In this document: piece after piece, positions 61,738-64,000 of the stretch
Position numbering within the stretch: position 1 is the first letter of the stretch
How the letters are laid out: every line of letters starts with the position of its first letter
From: Pyrinomonadaceae bacterium
Lineage (GTDB): Bacteria > Acidobacteriota > Blastocatellia > Pyrinomonadales > Pyrinomonadaceae
Assembly (NCBI GenBank): GCA_040510435.1
Contig: JBEVJD010000356.1
Coordinates: 1,026-65,025 of the forward strand
Length of the DNA: 64,000 nt
Direction: 5' to 3'
The notes under the pieces: model-generated
What the model was told of the DNA's origin: nothing
The model's input: the letters and a program-made list of their open reading frames with translations, nothing else
The model's database searches: none
Position numbers and translations under genes: made by a program

Positions 61738-61921
61738 CTTTGTCTCCAGAGGCGTCGATGCCAAAGTCGTCGGTCTATGTACGTCGCGGCGAGCCGCGGG
61801 GTTCTTTGGCGTAGATTCTAACACCCCCCGGCGCGCGGATAGTAGTTGCGCCGCCAACGCGCCGCCTACTATTATACCCGCGTCAGCATTCTTCCAAGCC
61901 GCAGAACAACTTCAGAAAAAT

Positions 61922-62725
61922 ATGAGCGCCGAAAACGAGACGCCGAACGCCGCGCCCGCGCAGGAGGGCAAGTACGTCTACTGCATCATCGAGTCGAAGG
62001 AACCGCGCAGTTTCGGCCCCATCGGCATCGGCGGCCGCGGCGACGAGGTCTATACCGTCCACCACGACGGGCTGGCCGCGGTCGTCTCGAACACGCCCAT
62101 CCAGGTCTACGACCCGACGCGCGAGAACGTCTTCGCGCACGAGCAGGTCAACGAGACCGTCATGCGCGAGTTCACGGTGCTGCCGATGGCCTTCGGCGTG
62201 CTCTTCCGCACCGAAGACGACATCATGGAGTTGATGCGCGGCACCTACGACGCGCTCCGCGACGTGCTGGCGAAGATGGCGGGCAAGGTCGAGTTCGGCC
62301 TCAAGGTCAACTGGGATCGCGAGCGCGTCATCGGCGAACTGGAAGAGCAGAGCGAGGAGATACGCAACCTCAAGGAGCAGATCACCTCGCGCGGCGCGGG
62401 CTCGACCTACTTCGCCCGCATGCAGTTGGGGCGCCTCGTCGAGACGGCCCTGGCCGAGAAATCGGACGCCTACGTCCGCGAGGTCTACGACTACCTGCGC
62501 GACACGGCCGTCGCCTCGCGCGCCAACAAGCCCATCGGCGACAAGATGATCATGAACGCCGCGTTCCTCATCGAGCGCGACCGCGAGCAGGAGTTCGACG
62601 CCAAGGTCAAGGAGATCGCCGCCAAGTACGAGGGCAAGCTCTCCTTCAAATACACAGGCCCCTGGCCGCCCTACAACTTCGTCCACATCCGTCTGAAACT
62701 GGAGCGCGGCGAGGGCGCCGCCTGA
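61922..62725 (+). CDS. gvpF: Gas vesicle protein GvpL/GvpF family
   Basis: KYVYCII...VHHDGLAAVVSNTP...TVLPMAFGVLF...KYTGPWPPYNF are hallmark GvpL_GvpF motifs. Confidence 0.87.
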   Translation: MSAENETPNAAPAQEGKYVYCIIESKEPRSFGPIGIGGRGDEVYTVHHDGLAAVVSNTPIQVYDPTRENVFAHEQVNETVMREFTVLPMAFGVLFRTEDDIMELMRGTYDALRDVLAKMAGKVEFGLKVNWDRERVIGELEEQSEEIRNLKEQITSRGAGSTYFARMQLGRLVETALAEKSDAYVREVYDYLRDTAVASRANKPIGDKMIMNAAFLIERDREQEFDAKVKEIAAKYEGKLSFKYTGPWPPYNFVHIRLKLERGEGAA

Positions 62726-62775
62726 CGGCAGCGCCCGCCACCGACATGCGCCGCTTTGACCATCGAGGTCACGCC

Positions 62776-63303
62776 ATGACAGACGAAGAACGCCAACGCA
62801 CGATGGACTTCATCCTCCAACAGATGGCGCAGTTCGCCGCCAGCATTCAGAGGAGTGAAGAGGAGAGAGAAAAGCGCGAGCGGACAGACCGCCGCAGGGA
62901 TGTCAGCATCGAGCAGATCAGGAGAATCCTCGCTCGGTCGATCTGGGAGCGCCGTTGTGATCGCAGAGACTGGAACGAGCGCATGGCCGCTCTCGTTAAC
63001 GCGCAGATGCGGTCTGATGAGGCGCGGTCACGCCTGGATGAAAAGATGGACGCGCTCATCGACGTACAGGTCAGGTCAGAAGAGACGCAATCACGTTCGG
63101 AAGAGTGGCGGACACAGATGGAAGAGAGTTTCGCGCGCTCGAACGAAAGACTGGCATACCTTGAAGACTTGACGGCGCGCAACAGTGAGGCCGTCGGGAA
63201 GCTCGCAGTCTCGAACGACCGCAACAGTGAGGCCATCACGAAGCTGACCGAGGTCGTGACGGACATCGCACGGCGGCGGAACGGCGACGAGGAGTCGGCT
63301 TAG
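62776..63303 (+). CDS. Coiled-coil protein with internal 21-aa repeats (hypothetical), between gvpF/L and gvpG
   Basis: GAGG lies 6 nt before the ATG at 62776. MAALVNAQMRSDEARSRLDEK / MDALIDVQVRSEETQSRSEEW repeat, plus RNSEAVGKL / RNSEAITKL. Confidence 0.6.
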   Translation: MTDEERQRTMDFILQQMAQFAASIQRSEEEREKRERTDRRRDVSIEQIRRILARSIWERRCDRRDWNERMAALVNAQMRSDEARSRLDEKMDALIDVQVRSEETQSRSEEWRTQMEESFARSNERLAYLEDLTARNSEAVGKLAVSNDRNSEAITKLTEVVTDIARRRNGDEESA

Positions 63304-63307
63304 TCAT

Positions 63308-63640
63308 ATGTTCCTGATTGACGACATCCTGCTCGCGCCGGTGAACGGCTTCAAGTTCATCATGCGGCAGATTCAGCAGCTCGCCGACAAGGAGCTGAAC
63401 GACGAGTCCGTCATCAAGGAGCAGTTGCTCGAACTCCAGATGCGCTTCGAGCTGGAGGAGATTTCCGACGAGGACTACGCCGAGGCCGAGCGCGAGCTGT
63501 TCGCGCGGCTGCGCGCCATCAAGGCCCGGCAGCTCGAAGCCTTGGGGCAGGTGCACACGGCCGACTCCTCCTCAATGGTCGTCGAGGCGGGCGGCGACGA
63601 CGAGGGCGGCGACTTCTACGAGCCCGGCGGCGGGCGCTGA
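63308..63640 (+). CDS. gvpG: Gas vesicle protein GvpG
   Basis: MFLIDDILLAPVNGFKFIMRQIQQLADKELNDESVIKEQLLELQMRFELEEISDEDYAEAERELFARL matches the GvpG pattern. Confidence 0.8.
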   Translation: MFLIDDILLAPVNGFKFIMRQIQQLADKELNDESVIKEQLLELQMRFELEEISDEDYAEAERELFARLRAIKARQLEALGQVHTADSSSMVVEAGGDDEGGDFYEPGGGR

Positions 63641-63644
63641 AACA

Positions 63645-63739
63645 ATTTTTGATTCGCGGTTTTTGATTTGCGGTTGAAGTCATGAAACGAACCCCGCGCG
63701 CCTCGCCGAATCAAAAATCAAAAGTTAAAAATCAAAAAT
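63645..63739. repeat. Heptamer-arm hairpin (AATCAAA/TTTGATT family) spanning the arsA-like start
   Basis: atttttgattcgcggtttttgatttgcgg (63645-63673) pairs with ccgaatcaaaaatcaaaagttaaaaatcaaaaat (63706-63739). The ATG at 63682 lies in the loop. Confidence 0.75.
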
Positions 63740-64000
63740 CCTTCCTCCCCGAAGACTTTCCAAACACACGCTATATCTTCTTCGGCGGCAAGGGCGGCAC
63801 GGGCAAGACGACGGCCGCCGCCGCGACCGCGCTCGCGCTGCTCGACGCCGCCGAGCCCGGCTCAAGCCTCCTGCTCTTCTCGACCGACCCCGCGCACTCA
63901 CTCTCGGACAGTCTTGATGTCGAGGTGGGCGACCGCACGGCCGAAGTCGCGCGGCGCGGCTCCGGCGCCGCCGCCCCGCGCCTCTTCGCGCGCGAGATGG
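63682..64000 (+). CDS. ArsA/GET3-family ATPase (3' end outside window)
   Basis: [18 protein letters not shown] (deviant Walker A) and [12 protein letters not shown]. Confidence 0.85.

Follow-up and report, generated by a model that had tools for sequence, protein, structure and literature searches.

The opening genes of a probable gas-vesicle cluster in a soil Pyrinomonadaceae bacterium, with a co-conserved Get3-like ATPase and a coiled-coil insert

The DNA analysed here, a stretch of 64,000 nucleotides from contig JBEVJD010000356.1 of a Pyrinomonadaceae bacterium (assembly GCA_040510435.1), which we call the window, ends in a group of plus-strand genes that very probably represents the 5′ end, or first quarter, of a Pyrinomonadaceae gas-vesicle (gvp) gene cluster cut by the window edge. 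The last of these genes encodes an ArsA/Get3-type ATPase, and in this cluster the ATPase is a co-conserved member and not a chance neighbour: its gene, arsA, is fixed between gvpG and a second gvpF gene, gvpF2, in at least 76 related loci. The ATPase itself is a Get3-like pseudo-dimer without the metalloid-binding cysteines of ArsA. Four open reading frames (ORFs) run on the plus strand from position 61922 to the window edge, separated by spacers of 50, 4 and 41 nt, as follows.

61738–61921 (184 bp, between divergent genes): divergent spacer delimited by the ORF map, the presumed gvp promoter region
61922–62725, plus strand: gvpF1, GvpL/GvpF family, 267 aa, the first gene of the cluster (PF06386, E = 2.4e-79)
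62776–63303, plus strand: coiled-coil gene, 175 aa, inserted between gvpF1 and gvpG (no Pfam or NCBIfam family)
63308–63640, plus strand: gvpG, 110 aa (PF05120, E = 5.7e-20)
63682–64000, plus strand: 5′ part of arsA, 106 codons of a 700-aa ATPase, cut by the window edge (PF02374, E = 5.5e-19)

A sequence-only reading of the same DNA had called the GvpL/F, GvpG and ArsA-type genes, and the matches to PF06386, PF05120 and PF02374 bear it out. GvpF1 covers profile positions 1–245 of the 245 of PF06386 (267.3 bits, Pfam search), GvpG scores 71.7 bits against PF05120 (cut-off 30.6), and NCBIfam agrees with Pfam at the family level for the gvpF1, gvpG and ATPase ORFs. GvpF1 falls under both NCBIfam equivalog cut-offs and is thus to be regarded as a generic L/F member. 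No identical database record was retrieved for GvpF1 or GvpG of the window by exact-sequence look-up. The ORF map also agrees with that reading on the divergent spacer ahead of the plus-strand genes and on the genes themselves, two implied coordinates being off by one, and its supposition of an acidobacterial host is matched by the assignment to Pyrinomonadaceae. It had further remarked that no GvpA-, GvpJ- or GvpK-like ORF occurs in the window, and searches with GvpA, GvpJ, GvpS and GvpK of the closest relative indeed give no further match in the 64 kb (tblastn).

A cluster without gvpA, as this absence had suggested, turns out to be an artefact of the window edge. Relatives were gathered by a GvpF1 scan of candidate stretches from 185,579 species genomes with confirmation by tblastn, which returned 486 of them, a lower bound; the locus comparison was made on the best 80 of the 486 (L001–L080), all of them metagenome-assembled genomes of soil Pyrinomonadaceae/Blastocatellia (Acidobacteriota), across whose 80 species GvpF1 is 81–99% identical. 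In the roughly 46 of these loci whose contig extends far enough, tblastn recovers a shared order of gvpF1-(insert)-gvpG-arsA-gvpF2/L-gvpS/M-gvpF3-gvpK-gvpJ-gvpA, followed by a PAS histidine kinase and a STAS-domain response regulator, and three metagenome contigs with precomputed Pfam hits display the same gene order. The genes lie on a single strand and are tightly spaced or overlapping, and the gap between gvpF1 and gvpG measures about 20–35 nt in most related loci. Hence arsA is followed in these longer loci by gvpF2, gvpS/M, gvpF3, gvpK, gvpJ and a canonical gvpA, and no gvpA is in view because the window ends about 5 kb too early, as judged from the position of the gene in those relatives.

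The cluster is complete in the closest relative, L001, the GvpF1 of which is 99% identical. In this locus gvpG is followed by the gene of a 676-aa two-domain ArsA homologue (ArsA_ATPase twice, E = 1.4e-131), then by those of a second GvpL/F, an 82-aa S/M-like protein of the Gas_vesicle family and a third GvpL/F, and next by GvpK (E = 2.8e-34) and a 127-aa GvpJ-like protein of the Gas_vesicle family. The GvpA of this locus, 94 aa long, matches PF00741 at 3.7e-17 and passes NF006874 with 118 bits against a cut-off of 100, and its gene lies 7.2 kb downstream of the gvpF1 start. Two ORFs of the same locus were discarded as shadow ORFs, namely 16054–16344 (plus), where the true gene is gvpK at 16179–16547, and 17530–19833 (minus), where it is the PAS histidine kinase at 17554–19737. 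The kinase and the response regulator with its STAS output domain (L001:17554–20536) stand directly after gvpA in nearly all related loci, and the pair probably controls expression of the cluster.

The sequence-only reading had taken the ATPase to be foreign to known gvp clusters, which earlier literature contradicts. Two-domain ArsA homologues inside gvp clusters were described in four phyla, Acidobacteria included (Castillo & Saier 2010, PMC2963123); the taxa are Bacteroidetes/Chlorobi, a delta-proteobacterium, cyanobacteria and an acidobacterium, the named hosts being Polaribacter, Pelodictyon, Geobacter uraniireducens, Anabaena/Nostoc and one acidobacterium, in which arsA accompanies two L/F genes together with J, K and M (PMC2963123). 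These authors suggested that the ATPase provides energy for a step in biogenesis (PMC2963123). An independent case of the linkage is present on plasmid p4 of Nostoc sphaeroides (NZ_CP031945), with the order gvpA-gvpA-gvpC-gvpN-gvpJ-gvpK-gvpF/L...gvpF/L-ArsA-AAA; a tblastn search of a plasmid collection with the ATPase gave one partial match, and the Nostoc plasmid was reached through the GvpA query. The linkage does not extend to all gvp clusters, since plasmids of Methylocella and Thiodictyon have gvp genes without an ArsA homologue. The survey of co-conservation that the sequence-only reading had called for finds the ATPase retained in the cluster across related loci, and we found no paper in the literature testing the function of a gvp-linked ATPase.

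The full-length ATPase (P0099) is encoded on the same 68,467-bp contig; it is 700 aa long and its N-terminus is identical to the window ORF. It passes TIGR00345, the model of the Get3/TRC40/ArsA subfamily, with 436.6 bits (cut-off 135), and fails the ArsA equivalog TIGR04291 with 208.7 bits (cut-off 650). Two PF02374 stretches are present, with a P-loop in each, and both halves have an intact P-loop GGKGG[TV]GKTT, a switch motif and DTAP[ST]GH. The protein contains five cysteines only (C291, C294, one at about 601, C648 and C651), four of which, C291, C294, C648 and C651, are conserved without exception in 46 homologues and form one CxxC per half: CPFC at 291–294 aligns with the zinc motif CKRC of the Get3 structure 3io3, and CDFC at 648–651 is its counterpart in the second half. 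The metalloid-binding cysteines of E. coli ArsA are C113, C172 and C422. Because P0099 has no cysteine in residues 1–290, equivalents of C113 and C172 are impossible, and the metalloid site cannot form.

Among solved structures, the best match by sequence is the fused two-domain Get3 homologue ARSA1 of Chlamydomonas (5zme, 1.3e-66), followed by Get3 proteins (1e-49 to 1e-41) and E. coli ArsA (3e-34). The AlphaFold2 model of P0099 has a pTM of 0.78, with a disordered linker between the halves (345–385) and helical subdomains predicted at low confidence (pLDDT 50–70). In the fold search the model matches full-length ArsA (9nbo and 1ii0), and each half matches Get3/TRC40. Get3/TRC40 and ARSA1, the closest of the solved structures by sequence, share with the ATPase the TDPAHSLSD switch motif and the fold; Get3 also shares the aligned CxxC zinc motif, whereas ARSA1 has no CxxC at the aligned positions. 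In contrast to Get3, the protein described here is bacterial and encoded in a gas-vesicle operon, and no receptor of the Get1/2 type is expected. With the ArsA proteins of E. coli and Leptospirillum (1f48, 9nbo), which rank first among the full-length structural matches (target-normalised TM-score 0.72–0.79), it has in common the pseudo-dimeric two-domain architecture, but the arsenite-pump ArsA differs in its weaker sequence match, in the failed equivalog model and in the metalloid cysteines that are absent here.

The gvp-linked ArsA homologue of Nostoc aligns with P0099 collinearly, half for half (33% identity, E = 7e-79), cross-half alignments being much weaker, from which it follows that the duplication of the ATPase predates the split between the Nostoc and Pyrinomonadaceae lineages. 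The Nostoc protein differs in having no CxxC at the aligned position. In one related locus (L042:11149–13045) the ATPase is split into two half-size ORFs, 316 and 320 aa long, which share 17 nt and lack the linker, and each split half retains the P-loop, DTAPxGH and CxxC. A frame test suggests that the split form recurs in a subclade of the relatives (L045, L050, L051, L056, L060, L065, L069, L071, L072 and L074) and accounts for about 11–14 of 76 loci, two of them possibly assembly frameshifts. Such forms would fit a pseudo-heterodimer and suggest a natural polymorphism between fused and split genes.

The cluster is locally devoid of GvpN, GvpC and Hsp20. Queries with GvpN from Nostoc and Methylocella, with GvpC from Nostoc and with Hsp20 gave no tblastn match in the window and 85 acidobacterial loci (1.38 Mb), while Nostoc GvpJ and GvpK, which served as positive controls, gave matches throughout. 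The 2010 survey implies a comparable lack for its acidobacterium (PMC2963123).

What could a Get3-like ATPase do in such a cluster? In Bacillus megaterium, the shell protein is bound primarily by GvpF, whose place GvpG then takes; GvpJ and GvpS act early (PMC11445434). On this pattern, GvpA would form the shell here and GvpJ/S would seed it, while GvpF/L and GvpG would hold the hydrophobic GvpA (PMC11445434). Opening and closing of the hydrophobic groove of the ATPase, driven by ATP, might then shield GvpA-family proteins or GvpG and hand these clients over, so that the Get3-like ATPase would take on the energy-dependent step for which other clusters use GvpN. We tentatively put forward as one possible explanation, which we consider less likely than not, that a zinc-bridged Get3-like ATPase, fused or encoded by two half-genes, may serve as an energy-dependent chaperone or insertase delivering GvpA-family proteins into the growing shell in the GvpN- and GvpC-less clusters of soil Pyrinomonadaceae.

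Several observations weigh against this picture of a complete cluster with a chaperone ATPase. The chaperone role is drawn from family membership and from analogy with the Get3 groove. The ATPase is not a simple substitute for GvpN, because the cyanobacterial ArsA homologue co-occurs with GvpN; moreover, heterologous gas-vesicle constructs derived from Anabaena work, to our knowledge, without an ArsA homologue. GvpN may also sit elsewhere in the genome, as the absence search covers ±10 kb around the clusters. The gvpA gene lies outside the window, its presence in the source organism being deduced from relatives at about 90% nucleotide identity. In three loci the cluster stops short, after arsA in two (L042 and L065) and after gvpF2 in one (L013); unrelated genes follow (L042:13006–20801, L065, L013:14300–20798), and the distal gvp genes are not encountered within 7–8 kb. 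A look through the literature brought up no report of gas vesicles in Pyrinomonadaceae or Blastocatellia.

Among known systems, the nearest is the ArsA-containing gvp cluster reported from an acidobacterium in 2010 (PMC2963123). The clusters of that survey resemble the present one in placing a two-domain ArsA of about 640–700 aa among L/F paralogues, J, K and M/S and in having no arsR, and the acidobacterial example likewise lacks gvpN (PMC2963123). In contrast to the latter, the cluster described here belongs to Pyrinomonadaceae (class Blastocatellia), has three L/F paralogues, and has a canonical gvpA and gvpG identified; some of its relatives have two half-size ATPase genes, and its subclade has a coiled-coil insert. 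The cyanobacterial cluster (Nostoc sphaeroides p4, and Anabaena/Nostoc in PMC2963123) shares gvpA, J, K, F/L and the two-domain ArsA, but it has in addition gvpC, gvpN and a further AAA ATPase, and gvpA comes first there and last here. What is new is the lineage and how widely the cluster is conserved among soil Pyrinomonadaceae, the pair of Get3-type CxxC motifs, the fused/split polymorphism, and the insertion hotspot together with the dispersed family of coiled-coil proteins represented there; all of these are incremental.

An intact cluster need not serve buoyancy. It might be cryptic, or the vesicles might have another purpose, for instance in a response to water-logging or stress, and this we regard as a serious possibility, though not our expectation. 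The hosts are soil metagenome-assembled genomes, and the cluster lacks gvpN and gvpC, neither of which is known from the clusters of actinomycetes (gvpO-A-F-G-Y-Z-J-L-S-K), soil bacteria too; these clusters differ in gene order and accessory genes and, as far as we know, carry no ArsA homologue. A role other than buoyancy has reportedly been discussed for them. The conserved pair of sensor kinase and response regulator after gvpA suggests conditional expression. A cryptic cluster is countered by the 81–99% identity of GvpF1 across the 80 species and by the intact ORFs, which argue for a selected function. This alternative concerns physiology and is compatible with the reading of the region as the start of a gas-vesicle gene cluster.

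Another question is posed by the coiled-coil gene at the junction between gvpF1 and gvpG, whose stop codon lies 4 nt ahead of the gvpG start codon. The sequence-only reading had described its product as a 175-aa coiled coil with internal 21-aa repeats, which agrees with what we observe: a 21-aa repeat in two copies (residues 68–88 and 89–109, 8 of 15 residues identical in the best window) and a 14-aa repeat in two copies, a sharp peak of hydrophobic periodicity at 3.5 residues, and an AlphaFold2 model consisting of one helix (residues 3–170, pLDDT 94.4). A fold search returned no matches, a lone helix being uninformative in this respect. The protein matches no Pfam family, GvpC included, at E <= 1 and no NCBIfam model, and its relatives give only sub-threshold matches in Pfam, mostly to coiled-coil or helical families. 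That the ORF is spurious can be rejected given its 93 close homologues and the more than 800 distant ones, the conserved termini, the heptad periodicity and the confidently predicted helix.

Could this protein be an external scaffold in the manner of GvpC, with the number of repeats tuning the width or strength of the vesicle? The gene sits inside the operon of a cluster that has no recognisable GvpC; its product is one long helix with internal repeats; and among close relatives the protein is length-polymorphic (105–203 aa) and modular, as is cyanobacterial GvpC. The close subfamily is associated with gvp genes: a word-indexed search found the 93 close homologues, all three of the context look-ups placed the gene between gvpF1 and gvpG, and for 13 close homologues the contig has the same length as one that bears an ArsA homologue. 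The protein thus resembles GvpC in being repeat-containing, length-polymorphic, all-helical and gvp-operon-encoded, but it differs in having no sequence similarity, in its heptad periodicity, which points to a coiled coil rather than to a helix lying on a surface, in being dispensable in close relatives and in belonging to a family that is not specific to gvp clusters.

The distribution and the divergence of the gene speak against the scaffold. A homologue occupies the junction in only 8 of 79 loci (L001–L004, L007–L009 and L021), and it is absent from L005 and L006 despite a GvpF1 that is 97–98% identical. Where GvpF1 is 97–99% and GvpG 92–96% identical, the coiled-coil proteins are 39–53% identical, with modules gained and lost. 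The GC content at third codon positions is 0.74 in the coiled-coil gene, compared with 0.94 in the flanking genes. An exhaustive profile search (E <= 0.001) revealed a wider family of 829 clusters at 50% identity, covered by no Pfam or NCBIfam model; its members, about 80–200 aa long, have a variable repeat core between conserved ends, with an N-terminal motif M-x-D/N-E-E-R/M-Q-R/K-x-M-D/E-F-I-L/V-x-Q-Q-A-Q-F and a C-terminal RNGG/N. Four distant members that lie on long contigs stand alone, surrounded by unrelated genes, beside response regulators, CstA and PhoU. Because the gene is missing from most clusters and its family is dispersed in unrelated contexts, the resemblance to GvpC is weak, and we consider a scaffold role unlikely. 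Genes of the family are scattered singly in Acidobacteriota (L089–L096, the gene at about 5001–5369 in each and at 1280–1594 in L096); in the window and all loci, copies occur only at the gvp junction.

The junction accommodates other sequences as well. Five other loci have unrelated inserts there, judged from ORF translations only:

62726–63307 (window): junction, holding the coiled-coil gene
L023:10801–11389: junction insert, toxin–antitoxin-looking pair (ORF translations)
L024:10801–11492: junction insert, thioredoxin-like protein (ORF translation)
L080:10786–11639: junction insert, transposase-like protein (ORF translation)
L034:10804–11121 and L014:3804–4161: junction inserts, small helical or membrane ORFs (ORF translations)

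An additional gene for a predicted membrane protein of 96–103 aa was seen between the coiled-coil gene and gvpG in L001:11431–11721, L008:2468–2779 and L084:6479–6769, and does not occur in the window. Different relatives carry different inserts, which makes the gvpF1–gvpG junction an insertion hotspot. Rather than encoding a scaffold, the coiled-coil gene most likely belongs to a dispersed family of small acidobacterial proteins and is dispensable, having entered the junction recently in one subclade and been kept or lost there since; it is most likely co-transcribed with the operon yet not a core gas-vesicle component.

Two further alternatives can be dealt with briefly. The notion that arsA is an arsenic-resistance gene merely lying beside gvp genes draws on the two-domain ArsA architecture and on its annotation in the sources as an ‘arsenite-transporting ATPase’, but it is very improbable in view of the score far below the ArsA equivalog cut-off, the stretch of 290 residues free of cysteine, the position fixed in the related loci and the linkage in other phyla; nor is any ars-related family present among the annotated neighbours of three loci, for which no dedicated search for arsB, acr3, arsD or arsR was run. 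That the GvpF and GvpG homologues serve a different protein compartment, as the sequence-only reading had offered on finding no gvpA in the window and gas vesicles being unexpected in a soil bacterium, is hardly credible against a canonical GvpA (the L001 protein passes NF006874), together with GvpJ, GvpS/M and GvpK, in every relative of sufficient length, the three truncated loci aside. The core motif of this GvpA looks nearly identical to that of cyanobacterial GvpA, as in Anabaena.

The surroundings of the cluster comprise the following further features.

61204–61737, minus strand: divergent gene, 177 aa, weakly LIMLP_15305-like (ORF map)
63645–63739: AT-rich inverted repeat across the arsA start codon, with TTTTGATT twice and AATCAAAA three times

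The AT-rich repeat encodes a Lys/Asn/Gln-rich N-terminal extension of the ATPase; it occurs once in the window and is conserved at the matching position in L002, L007 and L008, and its RNA folding is no better than that of shuffled sequence (z = 0.02). The divergent spacer (61738–61921) is about 90% identical at the nucleotide level in close relatives, with the alignment running on into the flanking genes. No sigma-70 consensus was found in it by a promoter scan; the promoter and terminator scan gave no promoter-like sites and terminator-like sites at chance level, and Rfam and tRNA scans found no RNA genes in the window. Only two other ORFs of the window have a Walker A motif, and by motif reading alone they look ABC-type and PilT-type. 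Upstream of the cluster, a conserved minus-strand block (56657–61737) encodes a zinc-ribbon protein, two paralogous proteins of 242–245 aa, an SPFH/Band-7 protein with three C-terminal zinc ribbons, a zinc-ribbon DUF4097 protein and the 177-aa LIMLP_15305-like protein. The SPFH, DUF4097 and 177-aa genes were considered as members of the system and rejected, because their synteny with the cluster is confined to the closer half of the loci.

The mechanism of gas-vesicle assembly is poorly understood, and engineering is turning gvp clusters into acoustic reporters. With only ten genes and no GvpN, GvpC or Hsp20 nearby, the compact cluster of Pyrinomonadaceae offers a clean system for asking whether a Get3-like ATPase handles a very hydrophobic shell protein; the role of the ATPase in a cluster without GvpN is the only real question that the cluster raises about its own workings. 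Its conservation across many soil Acidobacteria (at least 486 GvpF1 relatives) also prompts the question of what purpose gas vesicles have in soil. Should the proposed chaperone role prove correct, the tail-anchor targeting machine would have a use in bacteria that involves no membrane, and an abundant soil lineage would turn out to make gas vesicles.

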